DNA from: Desulfosalsimonadaceae bacterium
GTDB lineage: Bacteria > Desulfobacterota > Desulfobacteria > Desulfobacterales > Desulfosalsimonadaceae
Length of the DNA: 64,000 bases
Direction: 5' to 3'
NCBI GenBank assembly: GCA_046482325.1
Contig: JAWOFF010000107.1
Span: 1,244-65,243 of the forward strand
This document shows, one piece after another, positions 1,316-33,654 of this stretch. The position numbers and the translations under genes were made by a program. Numbering within the stretch: position 1 is the first letter of the stretch; every line of letters starts with the position of its first letter. The notes under the pieces were generated by a model, which was not told where the DNA came from, did no database searches, and was given only the letters and a program-made list of their open reading frames with translations.

Positions 1316-3385
1316 ATGGAATGGATATTGAATAATATCCCGCTGAGTTGCACAATTGTTGGATTTATTGGAATTGCGTATTCGCTTATTGTGGCCGGAG
1401 CTATTAAAAAAGCTCCGAAAGGCGATCCCAAAATGATCGAAATCGCCAATGCCATTGAGGAGGGCTCCATTGCCTACCTGAATCGGCAGATGAAAAGCAT
1501 GGCGATTGTCGGGATCATTATTTTCGTGCTAATTTTTCTGGGCCTGGGCGCAAAAACGGCCGTAGGCTTTTTGGTGGGTGCAGTAGCCTCCTATCTCGCC
1601 GGCTATATCGGCATGCGGGTCTCAGTGCTGGCAAATCTCCGGGTGGCCGAAGCCTGTAAAAAAGGGCTGGCAGCGGGCCTGAGCCTGGCCTTCAAAGGCG
1701 GCTCGGTTACCGGCATGCTGGTGGCGGGCCTTGCCCTTGCCTCCATCGCCGGCTTCTTTACCTACATGACCGCCAGCAGCCCGCAGGACATGCCGCTTGT
1801 TGAACAGGTAGTTCCCCTTGTTGCACTCGGCTTCGGCGGCAGTCTGGTCTCCATCTTTGCCAGGCTCGGGGGCGGCATTTTTACCAAAGGTGCCGACGTG
1901 GGCGCCGACCTGGTCGGCAAAGTTGAAGCCGGCATTCCCGAGGACGATCCCCGCAACCCGGCCACCATTGCTGACAATGTGGGCGATAACGTGGGCGATT
2001 GTGCCGGTATGGCAGCCGACCTTTTCGAGACATACGCGGTAACCGTTGTCGCAGCCATGCTGCTGGGAGCGCTGATCTTTGCAGAAAACACCATGGCAGT
2101 TCACTTTCCGCTGCTGCTGGGCGCGGTATCCATTATTGCCTCCATCATCGCCACTTTCTTTGTCCGGATGGGCAAAAGTGAATACATCATGGGCGCCCTG
2201 TACAAAGGAATGTTCGGAGCCGCCATTCTGGCAGCCATTGCATTCTACTTTGTAACAACAAGCATTATGACAGAAATGAACGGCATCCCGGCCATCAACC
2301 TGTTTTACTCTGCGCTGATCGGTCTGGTTTTGACCGTTATCATCGTTATTATCACCGAGTATTATACCGGCACATACAAACCGGTTAAAGGCATTGCAGA
2401 AGCCTCCACCACCGGCCACGGCACCAACATTATCGCTGGTCTTGCAGTAAGTCTGCAGTCCACCGCAGCCCCGGTGTTTGCAATCTGTATAGCTATCGGC
2501 CTTGCTTACGGATTTGCCGGACTCTACGGCATCGCCATTGCCACAGTGGCAATGCTGTCCATGACCGGTATGGTTATCGCCATTGACGCTTACGGCCCGA
2601 TCACCGACAATGCCGGCGGGATTGCCGAAATGGCGGAAATGGACGACTCCGTGCGCGCTGTCACCGACCCCCTCGACGCAGTCGGCAACACCACCAAGGC
2701 GGTTACCAAGGGCTATGCCATCGGCTCCGCCGGGCTCGCCGCACTGGTTCTGTTCGCCTCCTATACGCAGGAATTTGTCCTGCAAGCAGAAAAAGCAGCC
2801 GAGGAATCAGGCGGTCTTGCCGAAACGATCTCCTTTGATCTCTCCAATGTGGACGTTATCATCGGGCTCTTCCTCGGCGGACTGCTGCCTTACCTGTTCG
2901 GCTCCATGGCCATGCAGGCAGTGGGACGCGCCGGCAGCGCTGTTGTTGACGAAGTCCGCCGCCAGTTCCGCGAACTGCCGGGAATCATGGAAGGCACTGC
3001 CAAACCGGATTATCACACCTGTGTGGACATTGTCACCAAACACGCTCTCAAAGAAATGATGGTTCCCGCACTACTGCCGGTCGTTGCACCGATACTGGTC
3101 GGCTTCCTGCTGGGCAAAGTAGCGCTCGGCGGCCTTTTGATCGGCTCCATTATCACCGGTCTGTTTGTGGCCATTTCCATGACCACCGGCGGCGCCGCCT
3201 GGGATAACGCTAAAAAATACATTGAAGACGGCTTTTTCGGCGGCAAGGGAAGTGATGCACATAAAGCAGCTGTTACCGGCGATACAGTCGGCGACCCGTA
3301 CAAGGATACGGCAGGTCCGGCAATCAACCCCATGATCAAGATCCTCAATGTTGTGGCTCTGCTCATGGTGCCGTTTTTGATGTAA
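1316..3385 (+). CDS. hppA: membrane-bound proton-translocating pyrophosphatase, K+-independent type
   Basis: 689 aa and TM-rich, with [27 protein letters not shown] and [21 protein letters not shown] motifs. [10 protein letters not shown] carries Lys rather than Ala, the K+-independent signature. SD GGGAGGG lies upstream. Confidence 0.95.
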
Positions 3386-4080: not shown

Positions 4081-5106
4081 ATGAATGGCGGGAGGGACTT
4101 TACGTTCCAGTTCCATGCCGAAGCCGATGCAGGCAGGAGGCTGGATATCCTGACTGCCGAGCGACACCCTCAGTTGTCTCGCAGCACCGCAGCCCGCCTA
4201 ATCCGTGAGGGACGCATCCGCGTCAACGGCAAGCCGTGCAAGCCCGGCTATAAGCCTGCGCCAGGGGACAGGATAAGCGGTGAAATCTTCGAACCCGTCA
4301 AGGAGGCCCTCCCTCTTGAGGCCGAGGCCATCGATCTTGACGTCATCTTTGCGGATGCGCACTGCCTGGCTGTAAACAAGCCTCCTGCAATGGTTGTGCA
4401 TCCCTCCCCCGGACACACCGTCGGAACTTTTGCCGGCGCTCTGCTCTACCATTTTCCGGAAATCCAGGGGGTAGGCACCGCGGCAGAGCGGCCGGGAATT
4501 GTACACCGCCTGGACAAAGACACCTCCGGGCTTATCCTTGCTGCAAAAACCCCTTCCGCCTTTCAAAACCTGACTGAACAATTCAAAAAGCGCCGTATTG
4601 AAAAACACTATCTGGCCCTGACCTATGGACGGCCGCCGCAGGAGAGCGGACGCATTGATCTGCCCATAGGCCGCCACCGGGAGGACAGGAAAAAAATGTC
4701 CGCCAGAAGGCACACAAAGGCCCGGCACGCCTTAACCTTCTGGCGGCTTTGCTGTTTCTGGGAGGGGATCTCGCTTATAGAATACCGGATAGCAACCGGC
4801 CGTACCCATCAGATCCGGGTACACAGTTCCGCCATAGGCTGCCCCATTGTAGGCGACAGAGTATATGGCCCGAAAAAGCCTTCCAGGCTTTTGCACAACC
4901 CGAGACTCCGGAATGTTAGCCAGGCGGCGTCGCGCCAGATGCTGCACGCCTGGAAGCTGCGCTTTATGCACCCGGAAAGCGGAAGTCCGGTCTGTATCCA
5001 GGCGGAGCCGGCTGCGGATATGCAGTTGATACTGGAGAGGCTGCGTGAAGAGTCCGGCCGGGACTGCTTTACAAAAACAACGGTCATCGGGCCGGAGGAT
5101 CATTAG
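4081..5106 (+). CDS. rluD: RluA/RluD-family 23S rRNA pseudouridine synthase
   Basis: S4-like N-terminus (RLDILTAE...AARLIREGRIRVNGK) and catalytic GIVHRLDKDTSG. The start is set at ATG 4081, just after the carD stop, rather than the track start at 3940, which overlaps carD. Confidence 0.85.
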   Translation: MNGGRDFTFQFHAEADAGRRLDILTAERHPQLSRSTAARLIREGRIRVNGKPCKPGYKPAPGDRISGEIFEPVKEALPLEAEAIDLDVIFADAHCLAVNKPPAMVVHPSPGHTVGTFAGALLYHFPEIQGVGTAAERPGIVHRLDKDTSGLILAAKTPSAFQNLTEQFKKRRIEKHYLALTYGRPPQESGRIDLPIGRHREDRKKMSARRHTKARHALTFWRLCCFWEGISLIEYRIATGRTHQIRVHSSAIGCPIVGDRVYGPKKPSRLLHNPRLRNVSQAASRQMLHAWKLRFMHPESGSPVCIQAEPAADMQLILERLREESGRDCFTKTTVIGPEDH

Positions 5107-5132
5107 CCTGTCCCCTTAATAGAGGCCGGGCA

Positions 5133-5705
5133 TTATCCCTTGCGTCTTAGCGCCAGGGTACACCGCTTATCCTCTTTATCAAAGGTTAGAACGATCTCCT
5201 GGTCATCGCCCTTATTCTCCGCCAATTGCCTGTACCTACTCTTGATTCGCCTTTCGAACTCCTCGGGCGACTCCTGGTTCCCGCCTCCGAATTCATCCAG
5301 TTTCTTTTGCTGAAAATTCCAGAATGACCTCATTGAAGGGGAACTGGGGCCCCGGGGCTGTTCGGATTCCGGCTGTGATGAGGGCTCATTCAGGCCGGCT
5401 CCAAACTGTCGTCCCTGTCGATAGGCTGCCTCGGCGTTCTCCCAAAGCTGCTGCCAGGCCTTTTGATGATAATAGACCTTCCACTGCAGGTTATCCAACT
5501 GGTATTCAAGCTGCTTGGTGGAAACTACGGGGGGAACCCTGTAGCGCTGAATTTTTTCGACAAGTTCCATATGGCGGGGGTGCGGTTTGTTCCGCCGATC
5601 TGCCAGATAAGCTCTCAGCTTGCCATCCATGGCTTCCACCTGCCTCTCCAGCTCAGTAAGTTCTTTTTCCACCGCTGTTCGCCTTTGCTCTGTTGATTCA
5701 GCCAT
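5133..5705 (-). CDS. hypothetical protein with a coiled-coil N-terminus
   Basis: 190-aa ORF in an otherwise unoccupied region. Charged heptad-like N-terminus (EKELTELERQVEAMDGKL). I recognise no family. Confidence 0.55.
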   Translation of the reverse strand: MAESTEQRRTAVEKELTELERQVEAMDGKLRAYLADRRNKPHPRHMELVEKIQRYRVPPVVSTKQLEYQLDNLQWKVYYHQKAWQQLWENAEAAYRQGRQFGAGLNEPSSQPESEQPRGPSSPSMRSFWNFQQKKLDEFGGGNQESPEEFERRIKSRYRQLAENKGDDQEIVLTFDKEDKRCTLALRRKG

Positions 5706-5969
5706 AGCATCCAGCCCCTACGCATTTCGTATTTTTAGCCCATCAAATATTCATTAGAATACAAGGAGTTACCCAAGGCTGCGCCTATTTCCCTCTATCA
5801 GTTCCGGCTCAAATTGTAAAGCAGGGGCCTGGCCGGCCACTGGCACAAAAAAAGCGCGCCGTTTGCCGTAAAAGGTAAAAACAGACGCGCCTTGCAGAAG
5901 AGGATATGGACGGCAAAACCGGCTTTCCTGCCATTAATTCCGCAATAACGGATGTTGGGGAAAAAAGTA

Positions 5970-8042
5970 CTACGAAGCCATTACATCCGGATTGTAGCAA
6001 AGCCTGCAGCAATCCAGACAGCGATCAGCTTCGGAAAGAGCGCTTTGTTCGCTGATTACCAGATCTACCTCATCAAAGGTATGAATCCGCTCGGAAACAG
6101 GCAATTCGGGGGTTTGCACGCGCCGCCGGTCCCGTTTTACACCTTCCACCGAATCAAAAATGGTTTCCTGGATGTGTTTGTTCAAGATCGCCTTCGGCTC
6201 CGGAGTTACAGGCTTGTTTCGCAAAAACAGATTGATGGAGCGGGCAGCCTTGCGTCCCCCGCCGATGGCGTCAACAACAAGCGCCGGTCCGGTTGCGGCG
6301 TCACCCGCAGCAAAAATATAGGGCACATTGGTCTGATGGGTGGCGGGGTCCACCTCGAAAGTGTTCCAGCGGGTCATGGACAAATCATCCAGCCGGTCGC
6401 CCTTCCCACGGAATTCAGCCAGCGGCGCCTGGCCTATGGCCGTAATGATGGTTTCAACCTCCAGCACCGTCTCTGAGCCCTCAATGGGAACCGGCCGTCG
6501 CCGTCCACTGGCATCCGGCTCACCAAGTTCCATTTTTAAATACTCCAGTCCGCAGACCCTTTCCTGTTCATCGCCCATCACGCGGTTGGGAGACGCCAAA
6601 AAAATATACTCAATGCCCTCATGTTCAGCAGCCTCTATTTCCACGTCATTTGCGGGCATCTCATTTCGTGTGCGGCGATAAACCAGGTAAACCTTTTCAC
6701 AGCCCTTGCGCACGAGGGTTCTCGCACAGTCAATAGCCGTATTGCCGCCCCCGATAACAGCGGCGCGCCTGCCAACGGCAACGGACTCTTCATTGCCGAC
6801 CCGGGAAAGAAAGTCAATCCCTGTAAAGCATCCGGGCAGATTCTCTCCCGGGATCTTTAACTGATAATCGTTCCATGCTCCGATGCTGAAAAATACGGCG
6901 TCGAAACCTGCGGCAATCAGGGATCCAAATTCAAAATCGCGCCCAAGCCGGACGTTGGTGTGATGCTCAATGCCGGTGTTTAAGATCCCCTCGATCTCCC
7001 AGTCCAGGACTTTTTTGGGCAGACGGTATTCAGGAATCCCATAGCGCAGCATGCCTCCCAGCCGGGGCATAGCCTCGAATATGCCGGGATGATGCCCGAC
7101 CCTGCGCAGAAAATACGCACAGCTCAATCCTGCCGGTCCTCCGCCAATCACCGCCACCCGTTTTCCGGTATCCGGGGCGGTCTCAATAGGTATACGCCTG
7201 CCGGCGTTCATTTCATAGTCTGCGACAAAACGCTTGAGGTGATTGATGGCTACCGGCTCATCCTCAATGCCCCGGCGGCACCAGGACTCACAGGGATGGG
7301 GGCAAACCCTGCCGCAGGTCAGCAGAAGGGGATTTCGCTCCCGGATTGTATTGACTGCTTCTTCATACTCACCGGTTTTGATATGCTGAATATAACGGGG
7401 AATGTCAATTTCTGCGGGGCAGGTCTGCGCACAGGGAGCCACGGCATCCTCAGTTGTGTTTAAATGCAGCAGGCGCTCGGACATGGTCCGCACCTTCAAA
7501 ATCGGCTTGGGACAGGCACGCTCACACGCTCCGCAGCCAACGCATTTCTCCTTGTTCACAACAGGATAGCCCTGCTCTCCCATCTTTATGGCATCAAAGG
7601 TGCAGGCCCGGATACAGTCGCCAAAACCCAGACAGCCGATCCAGCAATCCCTTTTGCCGCCGAACATGGCAGCTGCTGCTTTGCAGCTGTTTAGACCTTT
7701 ATAAAAAAACCGATCCGTAGCCCTGCTTCCGCCGGTGCAGTCATTATACGATTTCAGCGGCTCCGCGGATCCGGCTTCCAATCCCATAATCGCTGCGATT
7801 TCCGCCACATTTTCCGAACTGTTCAGTATACAGACCGAAGGAGGGGCTTCCCCTTTGACAATGGCCTCTGCAGCCGCGGCACAGCCGGTGTATCCGCATC
7901 CGCCGCAATTGGCGCCGGCCAGCAGACCTTCCACCTTGGCGATCCTCGGATCCTCATAGACATAGAATATGCGCGAAGCAAAACTCAGAGCCAATCCTAT
8001 AACAAGGCCGAGTCCCAGCGTAAAAAGTACAGATTCGAGCAC
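5970..8042 (-). CDS. rnfB: RnfB-like Fe-S subunit fused to a GltD/NfnB-like NAD(P)H-dependent FAD/Fe-S oxidoreductase
   Basis: 690 aa. It has an N-terminal TM helix, an RnfB-type CGGCGYTGC...C Fe-S domain and a ferredoxin domain (CVGCGACERACP), roughly nt 7475..8042. The rest is glutamate-synthase-small-chain-like: Cys-rich Fer4_20-like segment, VAVIGGGPAGLSCA (FAD) and AAVIGGGNTAIDCA (NAD(P)H). It is the last gene of the rnf operon. Confidence 0.85.
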   Translation of the reverse strand: MLESVLFTLGLGLVIGLALSFASRIFYVYEDPRIAKVEGLLAGANCGGCGYTGCAAAAEAIVKGEAPPSVCILNSSENVAEIAAIMGLEAGSAEPLKSYNDCTGGSRATDRFFYKGLNSCKAAAAMFGGKRDCWIGCLGFGDCIRACTFDAIKMGEQGYPVVNKEKCVGCGACERACPKPILKVRTMSERLLHLNTTEDAVAPCAQTCPAEIDIPRYIQHIKTGEYEEAVNTIRERNPLLLTCGRVCPHPCESWCRRGIEDEPVAINHLKRFVADYEMNAGRRIPIETAPDTGKRVAVIGGGPAGLSCAYFLRRVGHHPGIFEAMPRLGGMLRYGIPEYRLPKKVLDWEIEGILNTGIEHHTNVRLGRDFEFGSLIAAGFDAVFFSIGAWNDYQLKIPGENLPGCFTGIDFLSRVGNEESVAVGRRAAVIGGGNTAIDCARTLVRKGCEKVYLVYRRTRNEMPANDVEIEAAEHEGIEYIFLASPNRVMGDEQERVCGLEYLKMELGEPDASGRRRPVPIEGSETVLEVETIITAIGQAPLAEFRGKGDRLDDLSMTRWNTFEVDPATHQTNVPYIFAAGDAATGPALVVDAIGGGRKAARSINLFLRNKPVTPEPKAILNKHIQETIFDSVEGVKRDRRRVQTPELPVSERIHTFDEVDLVISEQSALSEADRCLDCCRLCYNPDVMAS

Positions 8043-8137
8043 GACTTTCCTCTTAATTGTTCAGAATTCCAGATTAGGCAGCGGAAGATGCCCCGCGCCT
8101 TGCAGCCCAGGCCAGTGGAGCAGGATGCACCCCGGCT

Positions 8138-8713
8138 TTATACCATCCCCTTGAAAGCCATAAATGCCAGGGATAAAACGCCTGCTGTTACCAGACCGAT
8201 AGAGGTATCCTGCAATGGTTTCGGCACCCTTGCCAGGATAATCCGTTCCCGCACACCGGCAAAGAGAATAAGGGCCAGCCCAAAGCCAAGGGCATAGGCG
8301 ATAGAAGCGATAAGCGCCTGCAGAAAGGTGTATTCCTCCTGCACGTTTATCAGGCAGACACCCATAACTGCGCAGTTTGTGGTAATAAGAGGCAGAAAAA
8401 TGCCAAGCCCTGCATACAGGGCGGGAATGCTTTTCTTGAGAAACATTTCAACAAATTGCACCAGCGATGCAATGACCAGAATAAAAGCAATGGTGCGCAA
8501 AAATTCAATGCCCAGGGTAGCCAGAAAACAGGTGTTTATCACCCAGGTGATAACACCGGCCATGACCATAACAAAGAGGACCGCCATGGCCATGCCCACG
8601 GCCGTCTCCATTTTTTTGGAAGTGCCCAGGAAAGGACAGTTCCCCAGATACTGCGCCAGCACAATGTTGTTTATAAAGATACAACTGATGACCAGAACAA
8701 AGATATCGCCCAT
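8138..8713 (-). CDS. rnfA: Rnf complex subunit A
   Basis: 191 aa, collinear with E. coli RsxA (FINNIVLAQYLGNCPFLG, GIFLPLITTNCAVMG, AGVLSLAFMAFKG). Confidence 0.95.
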   Translation of the reverse strand: MGDIFVLVISCIFINNIVLAQYLGNCPFLGTSKKMETAVGMAMAVLFVMVMAGVITWVINTCFLATLGIEFLRTIAFILVIASLVQFVEMFLKKSIPALYAGLGIFLPLITTNCAVMGVCLINVQEEYTFLQALIASIAYALGFGLALILFAGVRERIILARVPKPLQDTSIGLVTAGVLSLAFMAFKGMV

Positions 8714-8749
8714 TATTTAACTCCTGTGTGAACTTCCACCGCGCCGGCC

Positions 8750-9343
8750 TTAACGGCTTCCGGCCAGATTCATCAGGCAGAGCATGAGCCCGAGGCACAC
8801 AAATGCCCCGGGTGCTTCCACCATGAAGGTAAGAGGCTCAAATGAAGGACCGAAAACTTCCATCCCGTAAAACGTTCCTTCGCCCAGCACTTCACGCACA
8901 GCCCCCAGCGCTCCGAGCGAAAGGGTGAACCCGATGCCGATGCCGAGGCCATCTGCCACCGCGTACACCGGCTTGTGCTTGGAGGCAAAGGCCTCCGCCC
9001 GGCCGAGGACTACGCAATTAACAACAATCAGCGGAATAAAAATTCCCAGCTGCAGGTATAGGGGATAGGCAAAAGCCTGCATCAGCAGTTCCACCACTGT
9101 AACAAAAGTAGCAATGATGATGATATAGCAGGCGATACGGATTTTGGGTGGAATCACGTTGCGAAGCAGCGAAACCAGGAGGTTGGAGCAGACCAGCACA
9201 AAGGTCGTCGCAACACCCATTCCCAGACCGTTGGGTACGGATTTGGTCACCGCAAGGACCGGGCAGAGCCCGAGGACCAGACGAAAGGGTGGAATCTCCT
9301 CCCATAAGCCTTTGGTAAATTCCTGAGCCAGTGTCTTTGCCAT
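8750..9343 (-). CDS. rnfE: Rnf complex subunit E
   Basis: 197 aa with LVLGLCPVLAVT and GIFIPLIVVNCVVLGRAEAFA motifs. Confidence 0.95.
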   Translation of the reverse strand: MAKTLAQEFTKGLWEEIPPFRLVLGLCPVLAVTKSVPNGLGMGVATTFVLVCSNLLVSLLRNVIPPKIRIACYIIIIATFVTVVELLMQAFAYPLYLQLGIFIPLIVVNCVVLGRAEAFASKHKPVYAVADGLGIGIGFTLSLGALGAVREVLGEGTFYGMEVFGPSFEPLTFMVEAPGAFVCLGLMLCLMNLAGSR

Positions 9344-9358
9344 AATCTTTATTTCCTT

Positions 9359-9952
9359 CTATCCGGAAAAAGTTGACAACTGTTTTTGAATCCGGGGTTT
9401 TACCTTATTGTAAAGATTCCCGGCTCTTCTGACGGCCGTACATACAGCCCGGGAGGTAATAGTGGCACCGGCCATGGGGATTATATCTCCGCCATCCTTT
9501 TTCACATTCGTCTCAGTGCCGATTTCCACTCCCTGGAACTGCTTTTTGAAATCTTCATGGGTCTCTACCCGGGCGCCCACGCCGGGCGTTTCATTATGGG
9601 TGGTAACGCTGACGCCATGGATTTTACCGGTTCTCACGTTTACGGCAACCATTGTTCCCACATCGCCCCCGTAGCCGCTGCCTTTGGTTTCAAAGGCCAC
9701 CACTCCGGGCTCTCCCTCATAAACGCCCACAAAAAAATTTCTTTCAGTTCCGTCAACCTGGAGCGAGAACCGATCCTGAATCGGATTATTGGAAGCGCCT
9801 TCCAAAATCTTCTTGATGGCCGGCCCCTTGACGAATTTGAGAACCTGGCTGTCAATACGATCCTGCGTGTTGTTCCGGATGGCAGCCAGCAATCCACCGG
9901 AGAAGCTGCTCAGAATTGTCAGCACAAGAACCATTTTTACCATTTCACGCAT
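9359..9952 (-). CDS. rnfG: Rnf complex subunit G (FMN-binding, periplasmic)
   Basis: 197 aa with an N-terminal anchor and an FMN_bind-type domain. It retains the flavinylation motif in AGATITSRAV. Confidence 0.9.
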   Translation of the reverse strand: MREMVKMVLVLTILSSFSGGLLAAIRNNTQDRIDSQVLKFVKGPAIKKILEGASNNPIQDRFSLQVDGTERNFFVGVYEGEPGVVAFETKGSGYGGDVGTMVAVNVRTGKIHGVSVTTHNETPGVGARVETHEDFKKQFQGVEIGTETNVKKDGGDIIPMAGATITSRAVCTAVRRAGNLYNKVKPRIQKQLSTFSG

Positions 9953-10913
9953 AATTGATCACCTTTCGCAAGGTCTTGGGTCGGATTTTATCAATTATCG
10001 GGTTGATAAGATTAATCAACAGAATGGCAAACACGACCCCGTCGATATGAGTGCCAATATTACGGATAAGAACCGTCAAAAAACCGCCAAGCGCTCCATA
10101 CAGCAACATGGGGATAAAGTTTACCGGTGATGAAGAATCATCTGTGGCCAGAAAGAAAGCGCCCAGCAGGGAATATCCGGTCAGAACATGAAAGCCGGCC
10201 CCGGCATATACCTGCGGGTTGGCCTGATGAAAAACAAAAGCTGTAATAAACATCCCGGCGATAAAGGAAAGCGCGATTTCCCAGCGGATATAGCCCCGGA
10301 GCATAAGATAAATCCCGCCGATAATCAACCCCAGCGCACAAGAGGTTCCAATGCCGCCCACCTGCCGGCCGAGCAGCAAATCGGCGGCAGAGAACCCTTC
10401 CACAGCGGCGGATCCGAATGATTTGGCCAGCAATAATGGAAAAACGGGATTGAAATCAAACTGGTAATTGACAAGTGCTTTATTAAAATCGAGGAAGCCG
10501 GGCCAGGAAATCAGCAGTACCGCAAATGCAAAGGCCACCGGATTAAAGGGATTTCCCCCCAGTCCGCCGAAAATCTGCTTGCCAATGACCACCATAAAAA
10601 GAGTCCCTACAACAACCACCCACCAGGGAGTAACAGCGGGCAGCATCATGGCAAACAGCATACCCAGCAGTGCGGCATTTCCATCGCCTATGGAGACCGG
10701 CCGCCGGGTTAAAAAATTCATTATGAGCTCCCAGATCATGGCCGAGGCGATCGAGAGCGCAACCAATGCCAGGGCGGCAAGACCGTATTGAAACAGGCCC
10801 GGGATTACCGCCAGCAGGGTGGCCAACAGGATATTGTAATTTTTGAGCGAAATCTGACTTCCGCTGTGCCAGAACGGGGCATGGGATACAGTCAGTTTGA
10901 TGGACTCAGGCAT
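9945..10913 (-). CDS. rnfD: Rnf complex subunit D
   Basis: 322 aa, collinear with RsxD/NqrB (PWWVVVVGTLFMVVIGKQIFGGLGGNPFNP, GAFFLATD). It overlaps rnfC and rnfG by 8 nt each. Confidence 0.9.
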   Translation of the reverse strand: MPESIKLTVSHAPFWHSGSQISLKNYNILLATLLAVIPGLFQYGLAALALVALSIASAMIWELIMNFLTRRPVSIGDGNAALLGMLFAMMLPAVTPWWVVVVGTLFMVVIGKQIFGGLGGNPFNPVAFAFAVLLISWPGFLDFNKALVNYQFDFNPVFPLLLAKSFGSAAVEGFSAADLLLGRQVGGIGTSCALGLIIGGIYLMLRGYIRWEIALSFIAGMFITAFVFHQANPQVYAGAGFHVLTGYSLLGAFFLATDDSSSPVNFIPMLLYGALGGFLTVLIRNIGTHIDGVVFAILLINLINPIIDKIRPKTLRKVINYA

Positions 10914-12189
10914 TGCTCTCCTCCGCTTTCATGCGCTCCAGCATGTGTTTGCCAAGTTTGATATGCTGAAAAATGGGAATCCGGGACTCACAGACAAAAG
11001 CGCACAGTCCGCATTCGATGCAGGCATCCAGCTCGGCCTGGGCGGCCGCCTGTTCATACTGCTCCGCCTCCAGCAGCCGGACCAGTATATTCACCGGGAT
11101 ATTAACAGGACATACCCTAACGCATTCACCGCAATTTATACAGGCCGTGCCCGAAGATTCCGGTATCCGGGAACTGTCCTGAATCATGATCACATCAGTA
11201 TCAGCTGCAACCGGCTGTTCTATGGTATAGACCGCGGTTCCGGTCATGGGGCCGCCGAAAATAAGCCGGTCGCCTTCCTCCAGAGTTTCGTTGAAGGTGT
11301 CCAGTATATTTTTAACCGGGGTTCCCATCGGTACGGAAACCATCCGTCTGCTGCCGTCTTTGGAGATAAAAGTCGCCATCTTGGTCAGGGGAAGCCGGCC
11401 TGTATTAAAGGCAGCCCCGATAGCGGATACCGCCTCCGCATTAAAAAAGGCCACATCCGCATTTCTCCCCTCGCCTCCGGCCTTTATCTCATCAGAGAGA
11501 ATGTGGCGGACAATCAGTTCCGGGTTTGCGGTCGGATATTCCGAATCCACTGTTTTTACGCCCGCGCCGGCGGCTCCGGCCACCTGTACCAGATGCTCGG
11601 GAACGGCCAGTATAACATTCTGAATGCCCGTCATTTTTCTGAGGGCATCGATGCCGGTTTTAATCGATTCAATGCTGGTTTTGACAAAATACTGGTTTGT
11701 AATGGCCAGAAGATCGTGTTCGGCTCCGAGAACCACAATCGCCTTAATCCGCCGGCCGGGATCAAAAAAGGGAGAGAAATCAGGTTTTCCGGGAAGTCCT
11801 TTCAGGAAACAGGCTGCTGCCTCAAGGCTGGGGTTCTTGCTCTGCTTCTTGAACTCTTCGTCAGGGACCTGCTCGGACTCCGGATCCACAGTAATGCTGA
11901 CTGCAGTCATCTTCTTCTGCATCATGCCAATAAAAGGCCTGACATCTGTGATTTTTCCGGATCTGCTGGCCAGGCCGTAATCGTCCGAATCCGCCGTGGC
12001 CCGGAGGCACTGGCCGCTTTTTACGTGTTCGCCCGCTGCAACTGCAAGATCCTGGCTATGCTCCAGCGGAGCGTCCAGCAAAAGTTGAATTTTTTCAGAT
12101 ACCGGGACATCAGCGGGCTCGGCGTCGCTGTCCACAATGGCCTCGTATGTCAGCCTCGGTTTGATAAAGCCAAAAAATGATCTTTTCAT
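10906..12189 (-). CDS. rnfC: RnfC-like subunit (N-terminal barrel, SLBB-like region, 2x[4Fe-4S]) lacking a recognisable NADH/FMN glycine motif
   Basis: 427 aa with CINCGECVRVCP and CIECGLCAFVCE near the C-terminus and an RnfC_N-like start. GLPGKPDFSP stands where GLGGAGFPT is expected. Confidence 0.8.
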   Translation of the reverse strand: MKRSFFGFIKPRLTYEAIVDSDAEPADVPVSEKIQLLLDAPLEHSQDLAVAAGEHVKSGQCLRATADSDDYGLASRSGKITDVRPFIGMMQKKMTAVSITVDPESEQVPDEEFKKQSKNPSLEAAACFLKGLPGKPDFSPFFDPGRRIKAIVVLGAEHDLLAITNQYFVKTSIESIKTGIDALRKMTGIQNVILAVPEHLVQVAGAAGAGVKTVDSEYPTANPELIVRHILSDEIKAGGEGRNADVAFFNAEAVSAIGAAFNTGRLPLTKMATFISKDGSRRMVSVPMGTPVKNILDTFNETLEEGDRLIFGGPMTGTAVYTIEQPVAADTDVIMIQDSSRIPESSGTACINCGECVRVCPVNIPVNILVRLLEAEQYEQAAAQAELDACIECGLCAFVCESRIPIFQHIKLGKHMLERMKAEESNA

Positions 12190-12262
12190 GGATCAAAACC
12201 TTTACCGGTCTTTCCTGGTTGTAAAGTGTCAAGTATACGCGATCATTCCGCCACCGCTCAGC

Positions 12263-12898
12263 TTAATAGGCGTGGCACTGACTGCAGTCGGATTTTGCGG
12301 GCCCCGCCCCAAAATCCTCATGACAGCCCGCGCACTGGGTATGAAAGGCCTCGGTGCGATTCCGGGGAACATGGCATCCCGAGCACCGGCTCCGATCAGG
12401 CACGACACCATAGTCCTCGTGGCATCCTATACACTGCCTGTGGAAGGCTTCCTTTCTGCCGGGCATCCCGCCATTGCCCATGCCCTCCTGATGGCAGGCA
12501 GTGCAGGCCTGGGGCTGCTGAGAATCCCCCTCCTCGTAGTTGTGGTGGCAGTCGCTGCAATACAGGCCGTACTGCCGGGCATGGGCCTCATGGCTAAACA
12601 TCCCTTTTTCGCCCAGGGCCGGCTTATACTTGCTTTCTGCACCATGGCAGCTACCGCACTCCCCCGGCTTCTCTTCGCCGGCCTCCTGAAAGGCATGATG
12701 GCAATCCTCACAGTACAATCCATAGGAGTCGCTGTGGGTCTGGTGGGCGAACAATACGTCGTCGCCTGTAGCTGCAAACATTTTACGGACCGGAACTTCC
12801 GGGCTTTTCGAGGGAAACGCGGCATAGCCCAGAATACCGACGACAAGGCAGACAGCTAATAAACCGTACGCCAAATTCCGTTCGTTTTTCGAAGTCAT
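12263..12898 (-). CDS. membrane-anchored octahaem c-type cytochrome (cytochrome c3-like)
   Basis: 211 aa with an N-terminal hydrophobic anchor. Eight CxxCH motifs counted by hand (CEDCH, CGSCH, CSDCH, CTACH, CIGCH, CSGCH, CAGCH, CSQCH). It is the first gene of the rnf operon. Confidence 0.9.
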   Translation of the reverse strand: MTSKNERNLAYGLLAVCLVVGILGYAAFPSKSPEVPVRKMFAATGDDVLFAHQTHSDSYGLYCEDCHHAFQEAGEEKPGECGSCHGAESKYKPALGEKGMFSHEAHARQYGLYCSDCHHNYEEGDSQQPQACTACHQEGMGNGGMPGRKEAFHRQCIGCHEDYGVVPDRSRCSGCHVPRNRTEAFHTQCAGCHEDFGAGPAKSDCSQCHAY

Positions 12899-13212
12899 GC
12901 GATTTAATTCCTTTCCACAACCGAGTACCTGCCGCCTCCAACCCCTTTTCAGCCGGGAGGGGCAGCCTTTGCCTCCCTCCGCACCTTAAAATCCGGGGGC
13001 TTTTTTTCAAATAAAGGCTTGTTCCGAACAGCCGAACTGCCTGCCCGGCTTGCAAAAGAACGTAAAGACTTTTTCGTATTAAGTTACAAGAGTTTTGTCA
13101 AGGACTTTATAGAAGGCCGGGATGCGTGAATCGCTACGGCGTCGCAATTGCCGCACCGCTCATGCGCCACACCCATGCGCTCGGCTTCTTTTGCGGAACA
13201 GGGGCATTCGCC

Positions 13213-14463
13213 CTAGTCCGCTTTTCTGCGCAGAAATGTCGGTATATCCAGATCCGTGTCATAGTTGAAATTGCTTCCGCCTGCATCCTCCCCTCCGGCT
13301 TTTTTGGCCTGCTTGCCGCAAGATCCGCCCCTGGATCCCGAAGAAGACCCGCTTTTCTGCTTTTTGGCCTCATTGCGGATGACTGTTGGAATATCGTAAT
13401 CATCCATTTTCATGTCCTCCTCGGTCAGGTCCCGGACCTTGCCCCTTGGCTGAAAGCCCTCTGCGGGGAACTTATGGACCTTGTCCTTAACCTCCTGCAT
13501 ATTCCGATCGCCTATGCCGGTGGCAATAACGGTGACCCGCATTTCATCTCCAAGGGAGTCGTCCACCGCAGTACCCCATATCAGTTCTACATCATCATTG
13601 TTGATCTCGTTATAAATGCGGTCCGATGCCTCCATGGTCTCCTCCATGGTAAGATCCGAATTGCAGGTGATATTCATCAGCACCCCGCGGGCACCAACAA
13701 TCGAATTATCCTCAAGAAGGGGGTGGGAAATGGCCCGTTCCGCCGCTTCAAGGGCCCGGTTCTCTCCGCTTGCCACGCCGATACCCATAATGGCCATCCC
13801 CGCCTTGCTCATGGTGGTTTTAACGTCCGCAAAATCCAGGTTGATCAGGCCCGGATTCATAATCAGATCGGTAATTCCCTTTACACAATGATGCAGGATT
13901 TCATCGGCTTTTTTAAACATTTCAATAAGGGTTGCCTTTTTTGAGGCAAGCCCGCGCAGCCGGTCATTGGGAATTGTGATAACTGTATCCGCCACCTCCC
14001 GCAGTTTGGAGATGCCCTCATCTGCATAGCGGCTTCGCTTTTTTGCCTCAAAGGTAAAGGGTTTGGTCACCACTGCCACCGTAAGTGCGCCCATCTCTTT
14101 GCAAAGCTCCGCGATTACCGGAGCCGCCCCGGTGCCGGTGCCGCCGCCGAGACCGGCTGCTATAAAGACCATGTGGCTGTCCGCCAATGCCTCCCGCAGA
14201 AGCTCCGTTGATTCCACGGCCGCCTCCCTGCCGACATTCGGATCGGCCCCGGCTCCCAGACCCTGAGTCAGTTCCTCGCCAAGCTGAATCTTGGTGTTGG
14301 CCTTGGCTTTGGCAAGCGCCTGGGCATCCGTATTGGCGGCTATGAACTTGACACCCTCCAGATTGGCGTCGATCATATTGTCAATAGCGTTGTTACCGCC
14401 GCCGCCGACTCCGATCACCTTGATTTTGGCTGAATTGTTGTTTTCCACATAGGTAAAATTCAT
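13213..14463 (-). CDS. ftsZ: cell division GTPase FtsZ
   Basis: GVGGGGNNAIDNM and GGGTGTGAAPVIA motifs, with a C-terminal DLDIPTFLRRKAD peptide. The start is set at ATG 14463 (MNFTYVE), preceded by AAGGAGG, rather than the track start at 14496. Confidence 0.95.
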   Translation of the reverse strand: MNFTYVENNNSAKIKVIGVGGGGNNAIDNMIDANLEGVKFIAANTDAQALAKAKANTKIQLGEELTQGLGAGADPNVGREAAVESTELLREALADSHMVFIAAGLGGGTGTGAAPVIAELCKEMGALTVAVVTKPFTFEAKKRSRYADEGISKLREVADTVITIPNDRLRGLASKKATLIEMFKKADEILHHCVKGITDLIMNPGLINLDFADVKTTMSKAGMAIMGIGVASGENRALEAAERAISHPLLEDNSIVGARGVLMNITCNSDLTMEETMEASDRIYNEINNDDVELIWGTAVDDSLGDEMRVTVIATGIGDRNMQEVKDKVHKFPAEGFQPRGKVRDLTEEDMKMDDYDIPTVIRNEAKKQKSGSSSGSRGGSCGKQAKKAGGEDAGGSNFNYDTDLDIPTFLRRKAD

Positions 14464-14523
14464 GGCGTCACCTCCTTGTATGTTTCGGGATAGCAATATT
14501 TGCCTTAATCTTCACTGTTGCTT

Positions 14524-15750
14524 CTATATGATTTCTTTCACCCAGGCTTTCATGCGCTTCATGATCCGGTTGAAAATATTGTTGTCGCGAATCCGGAACT
14601 TCTTTTTCTCCTGATTGCGGGCCCCATATATGACAAGCCCCACGCCCGTGGCGTACATGGGACTGTTTACCACATCCACCAGGCCGCTCACCCCCTGCGG
14701 CCGGCCGATGCGCACGGGCTGCTCGAAAACAGATTCGGCAATTTCGGATATGCCTTCCAGAAGCGAGGCTCCTCCGGTCAGAACAACCCCGGAGGCAATG
14801 GCATTTTTCAGGCCCGCCTGCATCAGCTCCCGCTTGACCAGCGTAAATATCTCTTCAACACGCGGTTCCAGAATCTCCGCCAGGATCTGCCGCGGCAACT
14901 TGCGCCCTCCGCGTCCGGAACGATCTGAAATCTCTATGGTTTCGTCGTTTCCGATCCTGTCCGCAATACAGGTACCGTACTTGAGCTTAATGCGTTCGGC
15001 TTCGGCCATCGGGGTCCGCAGTCCCACGGAGATGTCGTTTGTCATGTTGTTGCCGCCAAGCGACAGCACAAAGGTATGTTTTACATTGTTAGCGGAAAAC
15101 ACCGCCAAATCCGTAGTGCCGCCCCCAATGTCGATCAGACCGGCCCCAACCTCTTTTTCCTCAGGGCTCAGCACCGATTCGCAGGAGGCAATCGGTTCAA
15201 GTATGATATCGCAGACATCCAGACCTGCCTTATTTGCGCACTTGACAATATTTTGCGCCGATGTCACGGCGCCGGTCACAATATGGATGCGCGCTTCCAG
15301 GCGCACGCCCGCCATGCCCACGGGGTTGTTAATTCCCCCCTCCCCGTCGACTATAAACTCCTGGGGAAGCACGTGAATGACCTCCCGGTCCATGGGAATG
15401 GCAACAGCCCGGGCCGCTTCAATCACACGGTTCACATCGGCCTGGGTAATTTCCTCGCCCTTTATTGCAATGACGCCGTTGCTGTTAAATCCTGTCACGT
15501 GTCCGCAGGCGATGCCGGCATAGACGGAGGAAATTTCGCATCCCGCCATGAGTTCGGCCTCCTCGACCGCTTTTTTTATCGATTCCACGGTGGATTCGAT
15601 ATTGACGACAACGCCCTTGCGCAGTCCGACAGATGGATGGCTCCCGATTCCGATAATATTTACCGTGTCGGCTTCCAGCTCGGCAACCACGGCACAGATC
15701 TTCGTGGTACCGATATCGAGTCCGACAACAAGCTCCTCCTTTGCCTTCAC
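14524..15750 (-). CDS. ftsA: cell division protein FtsA
   Basis: 408 aa, actin-like ATPase (VVGLDIGTTKICAVV, DIGGGTTD), located between ftsQ and ftsZ. Confidence 0.95.
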   Translation of the reverse strand: MKAKEELVVGLDIGTTKICAVVAELEADTVNIIGIGSHPSVGLRKGVVVNIESTVESIKKAVEEAELMAGCEISSVYAGIACGHVTGFNSNGVIAIKGEEITQADVNRVIEAARAVAIPMDREVIHVLPQEFIVDGEGGINNPVGMAGVRLEARIHIVTGAVTSAQNIVKCANKAGLDVCDIILEPIASCESVLSPEEKEVGAGLIDIGGGTTDLAVFSANNVKHTFVLSLGGNNMTNDISVGLRTPMAEAERIKLKYGTCIADRIGNDETIEISDRSGRGGRKLPRQILAEILEPRVEEIFTLVKRELMQAGLKNAIASGVVLTGGASLLEGISEIAESVFEQPVRIGRPQGVSGLVDVVNSPMYATGVGLVIYGARNQEKKKFRIRDNNIFNRIMKRMKAWVKEII

Positions 15751-15751
15751 C

Positions 15752-16624
15752 TTAAACCTCCTTGTTGGCTTCGCTGCTTTTCTGTTCTGCCGGGGTTGCT
15801 ACAATGCGTTTCGGGTTTTGTGCATTCAGGTATTCAAGGGGCTGCAACTCCCTGTTTGCCTCTATATAGGCAAAAATCCGCCGGATCCGCTGAAGCTTTT
15901 GTTCATAGCCGTCGTATCCCAGATGAATTCTCTCTGCAGGCCCGTTGCTCCAAACGGTAAGTCCCATTTCCCGGTCCACGGCAATCTCATGCACCGCAAG
16001 GCCCCGCGGGCCGGCCCCGTCTTCCAGGCATTGCAGAAGACTCATGACAGCCGAGGAAACCTTTGTCCGTGATCCATCTGGCTTTTTCCAGTCCGCGCAC
16101 TCAAGCCCTGAAATAATCGGCAAGCCCGTCATTTCAGGGGGGGCCGCTTCTTTAAAGATTGACCCCCTGGAATCAATAAGAAAAAACCGCCCCACATCCA
16201 GAACGGCCAGGGGCCTGTGCTCACGCACAGAAACGCTCAGGCGCGAAGGCAGCTCCCGCCTGACAGAGGCAGAACGAATCCAGGGATATGCAACGAGCCG
16301 CTTTCTGACCATGGAAAGGTTTACTGCAATAATATTGACCTCCCCTTCCAGGCCAGCCGTATCAAGCACCATTTCCCTGGAGAGCCTTTCCATGCCGCGG
16401 ACATTGATGGACTCGGCATTGAAATAGTCGCACTGGATCAGGGCGTCATGGAAAAAAATAAAGGCCGCTGCCAGCAAAAAAAAACCCGCCATGGCAAGCA
16501 GGGCCGTACCCCCCGCCTTAAGAGCCGGCCAAAAAGAGACTCTTTGCCTGGCGCTTCCTTTTTTCAGACGGTTTTTCCGGTTGTTTTTATTCACCGACAA
16601 TTCGCACCTCCGGCTCCAGCGCAA
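15752..16624 (-). CDS. ftsQ: cell division protein FtsQ
   Basis: 290 aa, basic N-terminus, one TM helix, and a POTRA-like region (INVRGMERLSREMVL). The dcw position supports the call. The exact start is uncertain. Confidence 0.8.
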   Translation of the reverse strand: MRWSRRCELSVNKNNRKNRLKKGSARQRVSFWPALKAGGTALLAMAGFFLLAAAFIFFHDALIQCDYFNAESINVRGMERLSREMVLDTAGLEGEVNIIAVNLSMVRKRLVAYPWIRSASVRRELPSRLSVSVREHRPLAVLDVGRFFLIDSRGSIFKEAAPPEMTGLPIISGLECADWKKPDGSRTKVSSAVMSLLQCLEDGAGPRGLAVHEIAVDREMGLTVWSNGPAERIHLGYDGYEQKLQRIRRIFAYIEANRELQPLEYLNAQNPKRIVATPAEQKSSEANKEV

Positions 16625-17543
16625 CGAAAAATTTCCTGTACACCGCTTCCCGGACAGTTTCCATAAGCCGCAGGATATCCGCAGCCGTCGCCCCGCCCCG
16701 GTTTACAATAAAGTTGGCATGTTTCTCCGACACCTGCGCCCCGCCGACCTCCATACCCTTCATCCCGGCCTTTTCTATTAGCCTGCCGGCAGGCTCGCCG
16801 TCCTGCGGATTTTTAAAAAAGCAACCTGCACTGGCAGCACCCAGCGGCTGACGCTCTTTGCGCTCTGTGAGCAGGGTCTTTGCCTCCTGCTCCAGCTCCA
16901 GGCGATCCCCCGGCCTCACGGCAAAGCAGCCCTCCACAATAACCGGCGGGTGCAGCGCATCCCCTTCGAAGCCCGGTATTTCAAGCCTTCTATAGGAAAA
17001 GCGCAGTGCGGAGCGGGGAAAACGTTCTACACTACCGTCTCCGAACAAAACCCACGCCTCTGCCAGCACATCGGCAACTGCTCCGCCGGCTGCACCGGCG
17101 TTCATAACCATCGCACCTCCCACGGTGCCGGGGATCCCGGCGGCAAAATTTAAGCCGGCAAGCCCGTTTTCCCTTGCAAAGCGGCAAAGGCGGCCAAGGT
17201 TCTCCCCTGCCATGGCCCGTATCAAGCGGGCGGACCGCTCCGGTCCGGACTCCAGCAAAAGCCCCTTCAGAGCCCGCCCGGTATCGATAACCACCCCTCT
17301 TATGCCGCGGTCTCTTACCAGGAGGTTGGAGCCGCCGCCGATCAGGGTGTAGGGTGCGCCTTCCGCAATCAGCCACCGGACAAGGCCGAAAAAATCCTCC
17401 TGGTCACAGGGGCTTACAAAAATATCCGCGGGGCCTCCCACCCGGAGCCAGGTATGGGAGGCCATGGGTTCGTCAAAAAGGACCCTGCCCCTTACCTGCT
17501 CTTTTAAAGCGCTGCAGAATGTGAGACTGCATTCCATAAGCAT
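16587..17543 (-). CDS. murB: UDP-N-acetylenolpyruvoylglucosamine reductase
   Basis: FAD-binding MurB sequence (HTWLRVGGPADIF, LIGGGSNLLV, and a C-terminus with GAQVSEKHANFIVN). I prefer ATG 17543, which is 5 nt after the murC stop, to the track's TTG at 17600 inside murC. Confidence 0.9.
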   Translation of the reverse strand: MLMECSLTFCSALKEQVRGRVLFDEPMASHTWLRVGGPADIFVSPCDQEDFFGLVRWLIAEGAPYTLIGGGSNLLVRDRGIRGVVIDTGRALKGLLLESGPERSARLIRAMAGENLGRLCRFARENGLAGLNFAAGIPGTVGGAMVMNAGAAGGAVADVLAEAWVLFGDGSVERFPRSALRFSYRRLEIPGFEGDALHPPVIVEGCFAVRPGDRLELEQEAKTLLTERKERQPLGAASAGCFFKNPQDGEPAGRLIEKAGMKGMEVGGAQVSEKHANFIVNRGGATAADILRLMETVREAVYRKFFVALEPEVRIVGE

Positions 17544-17548
17544 TTGTA

Positions 17549-18931: not shown

Positions 18932-18942
18932 AAACCTCTCCG

Positions 18943-22632: not shown

Positions 22633-22640
22633 TTGCCAGC

Positions 22641-23720: not shown

Positions 23721-23722
23721 AA

Positions 23723-31286: not shown

Positions 31287-31762
31287 CAGCGAATCGCCTC
31301 CAGAACACGTTTTTCAATTCCCTGCTTGATTTGCCTGCGGGCTGCCTCCACATCATCCAGAAACATCACATGCACATACAGACATTTGCGGTCTCCGGAC
31401 ACGTCCAGGCTCAGGGTACCGGGCGTGAGTGAGACAAGGTTGGCCACCAGCATGATCTCAAAATCCGTCTGCGCATCAAGGCTCACTGCAATCACTCCCG
31501 GCCGGCTTGTCGGCCGGGGCGTGACGACATCCCAGAGCACCCGCAGGTTGGAGACCAGGAGCTGACCGATAAAATAGGCGGCCAGCCGCAGAATGCGGAC
31601 GACCCGGCCAAAATAGGCGCTTGGCCCGTATAAGGGACGGGTAACCCACAGGGCCAGGTAGCCGATGGCAAAGCCGGCCGCAAACCCGCTCAGGTTAACC
31701 TGTCCCATGATCGCGCAGAATCCCGCTGCAAGAAAAAGATTCAGCAGAAATAAATGGCTCAT
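31286..31762 (-). CDS. mrpE: Mrp antiporter subunit E
   Basis: 158 aa, MnhE-like, overlapping its neighbours. Confidence 0.85.
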   Translation of the reverse strand: MSHLFLLNLFLAAGFCAIMGQVNLSGFAAGFAIGYLALWVTRPLYGPSAYFGRVVRILRLAAYFIGQLLVSNLRVLWDVVTPRPTSRPGVIAVSLDAQTDFEIMLVANLVSLTPGTLSLDVSGDRKCLYVHVMFLDDVEAARRQIKQGIEKRVLEAIR

Positions 31763-33653: not shown

Positions 33654-33654
33654 G

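Follow-up and report, generated by a model that had tools for sequence, protein, structure and literature searches.

What does an Rnf complex do when its electron-entry subunit carries a pyridine-nucleotide site of its own? The question is raised by a stretch of 64,000 nucleotides from a Desulfosalsimonadaceae bacterium (contig JAWOFF010000107.1), here called the window, in which rnfB, the last gene of an rnf operon, is fused to a flavoprotein. In solved Rnf complexes, electrons pass from ferredoxin through the RnfB clusters and the RnfA/E [2Fe-2S] cluster to the flavin mononucleotide (FMN) of RnfG, and from there through the FMN of RnfD, riboflavin, and the clusters and FMN of RnfC to NAD+. 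Set against this path, the window operon has the first half intact and extended by an NADPH/flavin adenine dinucleotide (FAD) module, its second half is without two flavin sites, and a periplasmic multihaem cytochrome is co-encoded. The operon is of a type already described as Rnf2. Because the entry half of Rnf2 is extended by an NADPH/FAD module, its exit arm is degenerate and a cytochrome is encoded alongside, the best-supported reading is that the complex would be an ion-coupled NADPH (possibly also ferredoxin):cytochrome c oxidoreductase, a proposal that we judge to stand about evenly between right and wrong.

A conserved fusion in a cytochrome-rnf operon

The operon consists of an octaheme cytochrome c gene followed by rnfC-D-G-E-A-B on one strand, with intergenic gaps of -8 to 95 nt; the cytochrome gene lies 73 nt upstream of rnfC and the fused rnfB comes last. 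Domain content, conserved ligands, lost motifs and operon association are read directly from the sequence. The genes are as follows.

12263..12898, minus strand: octaheme c-type cytochrome, first gene of the operon; eight CxxCH motifs, hydrophobic anchor or signal at residues 6-30
10906..12189, minus strand: rnfC of a degenerate type; keeps the C-terminal 2x[4Fe-4S] region, without FMN glycine loop, ECEP nucleotide motif or SLBB domain
9945..10913, minus strand: rnfD, lacking the threonine for flavinylation (by alignment with solved RnfD chains)
9359..9952, minus strand: rnfG of the DVU2794 type with the flavinylation motif AGATIT kept (NF045876, 242.9 bits against a cut-off of 205)
8750..9343, minus strand: rnfE (E = 2.9e-57 to 9eri_E); C27 (LGLCP) and C110 (VVNC) conserved
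8138..8713, minus strand: rnfA (E = 1.3e-62 to 9eri_A); C26 (LGNCP) and C114 (TTNC) conserved
5970..8042, minus strand: rnfB fused to an NADPH flavoprotein module; 690 codons plus stop in one open frame (list of open reading frames and translation)

The cytochrome matches the Pfam families Cytochrom_CIII and Cytochrome_C7, with the TmcA/HmcA-like c3 domains of NCBIfam below cut-off. Within the fused gene, the following parts can be told apart.

7965..8042, minus strand: membrane anchor of RnfB, residues 1-26 (Kyte-Doolittle 19-residue means up to 2.2 over residues 1-30)
7827..7922, minus strand: RnfB FeS domain, residues 41-72, with C46, C49, C54 and C71 (PF04060, 42 bits)
7503..7646, minus strand: 2x[4Fe-4S] ferredoxin domain, residues 133-180 (Fer4_7, Fer4_9 and Fer4_21 matches at 136-179)
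7203..7439, minus strand: Fer4_20 profile positions 30-111, residues 202-280, with C204, C208, C247, C251, C255 and K270 (Pfam)
6258..7160, minus strand: FAD Rossmann fold (GGGPAG) with a nested NADP(H) Rossmann fold (GGGNTA, YRRTR), residues 295-595 (Pyr_redox_2)
5994..6125, minus strand: C-terminal tail, residues 640-683, the predicted permuted first 28 positions of Fer4_20 (RC675LDC678..C682)

A preliminary description of the window had proposed that positions 5970-8042 are a single 690-aa open reading frame (ORF) joining an RnfB-like N terminus to a GltD/NfnB-type flavoprotein. The minus-strand frame is indeed uninterrupted. It starts with GTG, 6 nt past an AGAGGA ribosome-binding motif, and all of the motifs quoted for it are present in the translation (CGGCGYTGC at residues 46-54, CVGCGACERACP at 167-178, CAQTCPAE at 204-211, CGRVCPHPCESWC at 243-255, VAVIGGGPAGLSCA at 296-309, AAVIGGGNTAIDCA at 427-440 and CLDCCRLC at 675-682). 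Pfam finds the two halves in one polypeptide: the FeS domain and a Fer4 dicluster (136-179) are followed by Fer4_20 (93 bits) and Pyr_redox_2 (113 bits), with Pyr_redox nested at 426-496. The assignment of the N terminus to RnfB also holds. In NCBIfam, the rnfB model TIGR01944 passes its cut-off of 68.7 with 80.3 bits, covering residues 7-194, the protein aligns with 7zc6_B at E = 6e-47, and rnfC, D, G, E and A are encoded with it. As in the RnfB layout, the FeS domain, with the spacing C-x2-C-x4-C-x16-C, lies between the anchor and the 2x[4Fe-4S] domain. Its four cysteines are invariant in both homologue alignments (A1, A2), and the eight cysteines of the ferredoxin domain (C133, C137, C143, C147, C167, C170, C173 and C177) are likewise invariant in the homologue alignment. 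The flavoprotein module begins directly after this ferredoxin domain.

The fusion is real and conserved. Among 5.8 billion proteins searched, the homologues number more than 120; they are 686-705 aa long and cover 99-100% of the fused RnfB at 66-93% identity. Their sources are Desulfosalsimonadaceae (93%), metagenome-assembled genomes (MAGs) of Desulfobacterales, Desulfofustis glycolicus and a Desulfococcaceae strain. When 1.84 billion cluster representatives were searched exhaustively and without a profile, the full architecture turned up in at least seven separate 50%-identity clusters. The junction between RnfB and flavoprotein is strongly conserved and gap-free in an alignment of 26 homologues, with the consensus KxILEVRTMSxRLLHLNxEDDALAPC. 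Among species-representative genomes, every fused rnfB at an rnf locus has the identical gene set, in Desulfobacterales, Desulfosarcina alkanivorans PL12, Pseudodesulfovibrio, Salidesulfovibrio and a Geopsychrobacteraceae MAG; the order cyt c-rnfCDGEA-rnfB holds throughout with one exception, locus L002, whose rnfB lies upstream. Cultured Pseudodesulfovibrio indicus and Desulfobaculum bizertense have, in their complete genomes, a 703-aa fused rnfB in the same operon. Fused rnfB is typical of marine sulfate-reducing bacteria. Because full-length homologues from so many independent sources, complete isolate genomes among them, carry the fused gene across a conserved junction, the idea that misassembly or a frameshift had joined rnfB to a gltD-like gene lying downstream is already refuted and retains next to no probability.

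The operon encodes the published Rnf2 complex

Contrary to what the preliminary description had implied, the architecture is not new. The Rabus group has described a 'Tol2-type/Rnf2' Rnf complex (Wöhlbrand et al. 2016, Proteomics 16:973). In the papers that treat it, Rnf2 is defined by an RnfB of about 700 aa with a pyridine-nucleotide domain, an RnfC without the Nuo51 NADH/FMN domain and SLBB, and a cytochrome gene (PMC5109826, PMC11887813). Dörries et al. 2016, summarising Wöhlbrand et al. 2016, state that this RnfB of about 700 aa 'contains NAD+-binding sites', and that D. multivorans forms two complexes, an Rnf1 of the A. woodii type and Rnf2, the cluster of the latter also encoding a cytochrome (PMC5109826). 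Rnf2 is further placed in the Desulfobacteraceae core genome, with constitutive, abundant formation in six strains, and a large RnfB is noted in Desulfarculus baarsii and D. salexigens as well (Sci Adv 2025, PMC11887813).

The window operon shows the whole of this set: a 690-aa RnfB with Pyr_redox_2, an RnfC without the FMN/NADH domain and SLBB, and a cytochrome c gene. It agrees with every published feature, including the Desulfobacterales taxonomy, and we found no architectural difference. We conclude that the window gene is the large RnfB of the Rnf2 (Desulfobacula toluolica Tol2-type) complex of sulfate-reducing Desulfobacterota, whose architecture was already known. The Rnf2 papers speak of NAD+/NADH binding, and do not note the StnC-type lysine ligand, the permuted Fer4_20 domain or the loss of the RnfD site that we describe below. 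The variant is not mentioned in a 2025 RNF/NQR review or in the C. tetanomorphum structure paper, and Hess et al. 2016 contains no Desulfovibrio data.

The flavoprotein module is closest to the NADPH-entry domain of StnC and NfnA

The description of the C-terminal half as a GltD/NfnB-type flavoprotein stands for its fold and its NAD(P)H type; its closest kin, however, are the NADPH-entry domains of StnC and NfnA, not the glutamate synthase small subunit. Against solved structures, residues 183-682 match best 9bov_A (E = 2e-130), 9n5u_A ('NfnA') and Sporomusa ovata StnC (8oh5_C, E = 5e-109), with NfnB/NfnL ranking lower at about 1e-96 and GltD lower still at about 1e-68. With PRK12771 'NAD(P)-binding protein', the C-terminal 490 residues score 508 and narrowly miss the cut-off of 516. 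The models of the glutamate synthase type all stay far below threshold (TIGR01316, 371 against 472; TIGR01317, 233 against 448; another gltA/gltD-type NCBIfam model, 322 against 483), and the ORFs and family scans of the window revealed no gltB near the fused rnfB. In StnC and in C. saccharolyticus NfnA, the GltD-like domain binds FAD and NADPH and passes single electrons via two [4Fe-4S] clusters into a longer chain, and it has been shown not to be the bifurcating site.

CLDCCRLC, which the preliminary description had listed as an extra motif, finds a different explanation here. The Pfam Fer4_20 match on the fused RnfB begins at profile position 30, not 1, and positions 1-28 are found instead in the C-terminal tail, which matches them on its own (E = 2.9e-4). 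In an artificial construct with the tail moved before residue 203, the Fer4_20 score rises from 88.6 to 118.2 bits and positions 1-111 are covered. HMMER aligns tail residues 640-678 with residues 7-45 of NfnB/NfnL, and the same tail is collinear with the C-terminal end of the StnC/NfnA domain. Since tail, construct and HMMER alignments agree, CLDCCRLC is, by these comparisons, the circularly permuted first cysteine motif of Fer4_20, predicted to supply ligands of the second [4Fe-4S] cluster. By position, C204, C255, C675 and C678 can supply the ligands of this second cluster of the module.

The cluster next to the flavin can be compared in the same way. C208, C247, C251 and K270 align with Cys-108, Cys-147, Cys-151 and Lys-170 of C. 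saccharolyticus NfnA, a correspondence by alignment only. The counterpart of K270 belongs to the Lys-ligated cluster adjoining FAD in NfnA and is K170 in StnC; in bifurcating NfnB it is a glutamate. At the nucleotide site, R456 and R457 (VYRRTRNEMPA) and R514 (GRRRP) align with R324, R325 and R382 of PfNfnI-B, of which the last two are named as contacts of NADP(H), and all three arginines are invariant among close homologues. Because of its topology, its lysine cluster ligand and these nucleotide-site arginines, the module appears closest to the non-bifurcating NADPH-entry domain of StnC/NfnA, not to bifurcating NfnB. It is predicted to hold FAD and two [4Fe-4S] clusters, with NADPH as the probable substrate by homology; for FAD and NADPH, the prediction draws on these three arginines and on the two GxGxxG/A motifs.

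The likeness to StnC (of S. ovata StnABC, 8OH5) and to NfnA of Bfu-type NfnABC (9BOV, 9N5U) extends over the whole module. RCLxC follows the Rossmann folds, three cysteines and one lysine are aligned at the proximal [4Fe-4S] cluster, and the NADP(H) motifs YRRT(R)xEMPA and GRRRP are shared, at roughly 45-55% identity and E = 1e-109 to 1e-130. The setting differs: the window module follows a membrane-anchored RnfB, whereas theirs lies between [2Fe-2S] and NuoG/FdhF-like domains, and StnC C114 is Ile here. Pfam and NCBIfam find neither a NuoG/FdhF-like embedding in the protein nor the NuoE/NuoF-like bifurcating partners in protein or operon. Because this context and these partners are absent, the protein is not itself a StnC or NfnA, although the module probably works like their domain. 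NfnB/NfnL of NfnAB (4YLF, 5JCA) and GltD (2VDC, 6S6S) also share the combination of Fer4_20 with an FAD/NADPH fold (E = 1e-96 and 1e-68, respectively); in contrast to both, the start of Fer4_20 is permuted so that RCLxC is C-terminal, lysine takes the place of the glutamate ligand, and the operon holds no NfnA-like or GltB partner.

An intact core and a degenerate NAD+-reducing arm

Canonical Rnf complexes (A. woodii 9ERI, C. tetanomorphum 7ZC6 and A. vinelandii 8AHX) share with the window the rnfCDGEAB order, RnfA and RnfE with their [2Fe-2S] cysteines, the RnfG flavinylation motif and the homologous N-terminal 190 residues of RnfB. The cysteine pairs of RnfA and RnfE, ligands of the intramembrane [2Fe-2S] cluster, are both kept, and the window RnfG aligns to 8rb9_G and 7zc6_G through the GATIT motif (AGATIT against AGATIT and TGATIT). 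With these ligands and this motif in place, the ion-translocating core is intact at the sequence level. Unlike the canonical complexes, the window has a flavoprotein in place of the distal poly-ferredoxin part of RnfB, an added cytochrome c gene, an RnfC without FMN and NADH motifs, and an RnfD without T156.

In RnfC, TIGR01945 reaches 169 bits against a cut-off of 246. The N-terminal 340 aa match two profiles alone, the cofactor-less second domain of NqrA (NQRA_2nd, 27 bits) and, far under its gathering cut-off of 31, Complex1_51K (18 bits, from profile position 26); Pfam finds no SLBB in this region. In a full-length alignment with solved RnfC chains, GMGGATFPTHVK of 7zc6_C becomes FLKGLPGKPDFS in the window protein and NAAECEPY becomes LGAEHD-L. 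The eight C-terminal cluster cysteines are retained at residues 350-400. In RnfD, A. woodii T156 (TTATPL), the site of covalent FMN, aligns with the Phe of NPVFPL, and the riboflavin-site counterparts of N123 and D249 are kept. An FSAAD stretch was also considered as the RnfD flavinylation site and ruled out, the alignment to solved RnfD chains pointing to NPVFPL. The same position holds Y, D, A or E in the RnfD encoded beside fused rnfB at eight other loci (L001-L005, L007, L008 and L034), and the RnfD proteins of P. indicus and D. bizertense (among the L081-L083 loci) likewise lack the threonine. The Rnf2 literature that we searched does not mention this loss. With the RnfD flavinylation threonine and the FMN and NADH motifs of RnfC gone, the canonical NAD+-reducing arm is degenerate at the sequence level.

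Two control loci bear on the origin of this loss: L084, which has no cytochrome, and L083, which is cytochrome-linked with a small RnfB and comes from an unclassified ENA metagenome scaffold. L084 is canonical, with a 267-aa RnfB, an RnfC with GGAAFP, ECEP and SLBB, and an RnfD with the threonine. L083 (genes at 7270-13962) encodes a decahaem cytochrome, a small 289-aa RnfB and apbE, a layout known from Desulfovibrio. Its RnfC is without the GGxxFP and ExEP motifs, its RnfD has Asp at the threonine site, and its operon has no nucleotide site anywhere. Because L083 shows the same RnfC and RnfD losses with a small RnfB, loss of the NAD+ arm would not be tied to the fusion; in this single example, it seems to track the cytochrome-linked Rnf clade, whether RnfB is fused or not. 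We found no such link in the literature searched. The idea that the cofactor sites of RnfC and RnfD were lost as a consequence of the fusion was rejected on the same comparison. Since L083 shares the losses and has no nucleotide site, it points to the cytochrome as the probable redox partner of the clade. The fusion, in turn, would add a nucleotide site on the electron-entry side.

A proposed route from NADPH to cytochrome and its alternatives

In the scheme that we propose for Rnf2, we infer which cofactor sites are filled, that NADPH is preferred, how the electrons run and what accepts them, and that ions are moved in the process. NADPH would reduce the FAD of the module, and single electrons would then move through the two Fer4_20 clusters into the RnfB clusters, on to the RnfA/E [2Fe-2S] cluster and to the FMN of RnfG at the periplasmic face. 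From there, they would reach the multihaem cytochrome of the operon and then the cytochrome c3/menaquinone network, which supplies sulfate reduction. The transfer would be coupled to Na+/H+ translocation and would be reversible, and ferredoxin may perhaps act as a second donor at RnfB. By analogy, the scheme resembles the cytochrome-linked Rnf of Methanosarcina acetivorans, in which the operon-encoded multihaem cytochrome MmcA is the electron outlet instead of NAD+. That system differs in being archaeal, with a small RnfB, ferredoxin as sole donor and methanophenazine as final acceptor. A broader evolutionary reading, to which we give somewhat less than even confidence, is that Rnf2 is a respiratory enzyme of a kind not characterised before, which would pump ions as it passes electrons from NADPH to cytochrome c. 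The NAD+ arm would have been lost in the cytochrome-linked clade and a nucleotide site later regained on the entry side through capture of a StnC-type NADPH module, turning the nucleotide from product into substrate.

Several points weigh against an NADPH-to-cytochrome route. The preference for NADPH over NADH comes from homology only. The eight cluster cysteines of RnfC and the riboflavin-site residues of RnfD remain, so the RnfD-RnfC branch may still carry electrons to another cytoplasmic partner. The potential gap between NADPH and low-potential c3-type haems is small, which makes the energetic yield of the reaction uncertain. The sole control with a small RnfB is the unclassified scaffold L083, and the Rabus group files the Rnf of Desulfovibrionaceae as type 1. 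An AlphaFold2 model built on the 26-sequence alignment (mean predicted local distance difference test score 57, predicted template modelling score 0.52, all Fe-S regions below 50 on the former scale) is too poor to give domain packing or the distance from the module to the RnfB clusters. Finally, PMC5109826 states that the mode of action of Rnf2 'awaits experimental verification'.

The retained RnfC clusters and RnfD riboflavin site keep alive an alternative in which RnfC serves another cytoplasmic partner or ferredoxin. In its full form, the roles are swapped: ferredoxin would dock on a flavin-less 2x[4Fe-4S] RnfC, the RnfB module would be the NAD(P)+-reducing exit and the cytochrome an accessory, leaving an ion-coupled ferredoxin:NAD(P)+ oxidoreductase. 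RnfC is predicted to be cytoplasmic and keeps both cluster motifs, all six subunits are retained and expressed, and the literature (PMC11887813) sees Rnf2 as connecting the ferredoxin pool with that of NAD(P). This arrangement would nonetheless have to do without the covalent-FMN site on RnfD that links RnfG to RnfC in A. woodii, and it would leave L083, with the same degenerate RnfC and RnfD and a small nucleotide-free RnfB, with no acceptor. In solved Rnf complexes, moreover, ions are exported when electrons run from RnfB to RnfC, and an exergonic flow from RnfC to RnfB would run with the ion gradient. We consider a swap of roles unlikely.

An NfnB-like bifurcating or confurcating module, in which the two electrons of NADPH part, one going uphill to ferredoxin and the other downhill to the Rnf chain and cytochrome (or the reverse), is improbable. 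Homology to NfnB/NfnL is strong (E ~1e-96), and isolated NfnB-type proteins bind ferredoxin and NADP(H) and have ferredoxin:NADP+ oxidoreductase (FNOR) activity. Yet the site-differentiated ligand is the Lys of the non-bifurcating StnC/NfnA domain rather than the Glu of NfnB, and the topology is that of StnC/NfnA. The operon also encodes no NfnA-like [2Fe-2S]/FAD partner, and the FAD therefore has one visible outlet chain only.

The module might also act as an on-board FNOR of the soluble type, equilibrating the ferredoxin and NADPH pools at the membrane and bypassing the pump. Stand-alone proteins with Fer4_20 and Pyr_redox_2 are active NADPH-linked FNORs, and orphan fused paralogues occur away from rnf genes. 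Against this, the Rnf2-type fusion is kept strictly in the cyt c-rnfCDGEA operons of different orders, the five cluster motifs on the RnfB side do not vary, and a tether to the pump would serve no purpose if electrons did not flow into it. We give such a bypass little credence.

Orphan fusions and the genomic neighborhood

The orphan paralogues are RnfB-GltD fusions at 35-40% identity that have no rnf genes close by; their second Rossmann motif is degenerate, and YRR is missing. Together with a further divergent fusion at L013, they lie at the following positions.

L009, 9001-11052: orphan fusion, with PpaC just downstream and, beside it, a divergent FdhA-like gene split at a probable selenocysteine codon
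L010, 9001-11199: orphan fusion
L012, 3793-5853: orphan fusion, with PpaC just downstream
L014, 9001-11091: orphan fusion
L055, 2768-4798: orphan fusion
L013, 6045-11529: divergent RnfB-GltD fusion after NuoE-like and NuoF-like genes and before RseC

The setting with a selenocysteine-type FdhA-like gene and PpaC, near CarD-RluD, is found at L009 and L012, and at L010 by gene layout. CarD and RluD lie upstream of the orphan fusion in L009 and L014, and they also occur beside the rnf operon of the window. L013 looks like a membrane-anchored Bfu/Stn-like arrangement, with the RnfB fusion in the place of StnC, and the divergent orphan fusions look like membrane-anchored partners of other dehydrogenases. 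A variation on the rnf operon itself is seen in D. bizertense (L082, 14473-15513), where apbE, encoding a flavin transferase, directly follows the fused rnfB and an 86-aa ORF without any family lies between rnfA and rnfB.

In the window, the operon is flanked on the upstream side of the cytochrome gene by a division and cell-wall cluster at 13213-28460 on the minus strand (ftsZ, ftsA, a Mur ligase, ftsI/penicillin-binding protein and intervening ORFs of matching sizes). A 190-aa ORF, orf190, lies 264 nt downstream of rnfB (5133-5705, minus strand) and has a homologue at the same position in L056. It matches no Pfam or NCBIfam family and is therefore not counted as part of the system; a weak SMC match (E = 0.007) suggests that it may be coiled-coil-like. 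An Rfam scan of the whole window gave no match, and a promoter and terminator scan of 5000-13400 gave fewer sites than shuffled sequence. The membrane H+/Na+-pyrophosphatase HppA (1316-3385, plus strand, 875 bits) and Mrp/Mbh-type antiporter subunits (31759-36326, minus strand; Proton_antipo_M, MbhD and MbhE domains) are encoded in the same 64 kb, which fits an energy metabolism centred on ion gradients.

Implications for sulfate-reducing bacteria

The architecture of Rnf2 was known already; the evidence assembled here sharpens a testable hypothesis on the role of an abundant complex. It predicts a preference for NADPH over NADH, a non-bifurcating FAD, a Lys-ligated cluster and an RnfD free of covalent flavin. 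In marine sediments, much of the organic carbon is oxidised by Desulfobacteraceae. If NADPH does enter at the module and electrons leave at the cytochrome, Rnf2 would be a missing link that connects the NADPH and ferredoxin of the reverse Wood-Ljungdahl pathway to the membrane and the periplasmic sulfate-reduction network, and complete-oxidising sulfate reducers could pass electrons from NADPH straight to the cytochrome pool of the periplasm while conserving energy. Rnf2 would then also be a clear case of the modular rewiring of an ancient ion pump.

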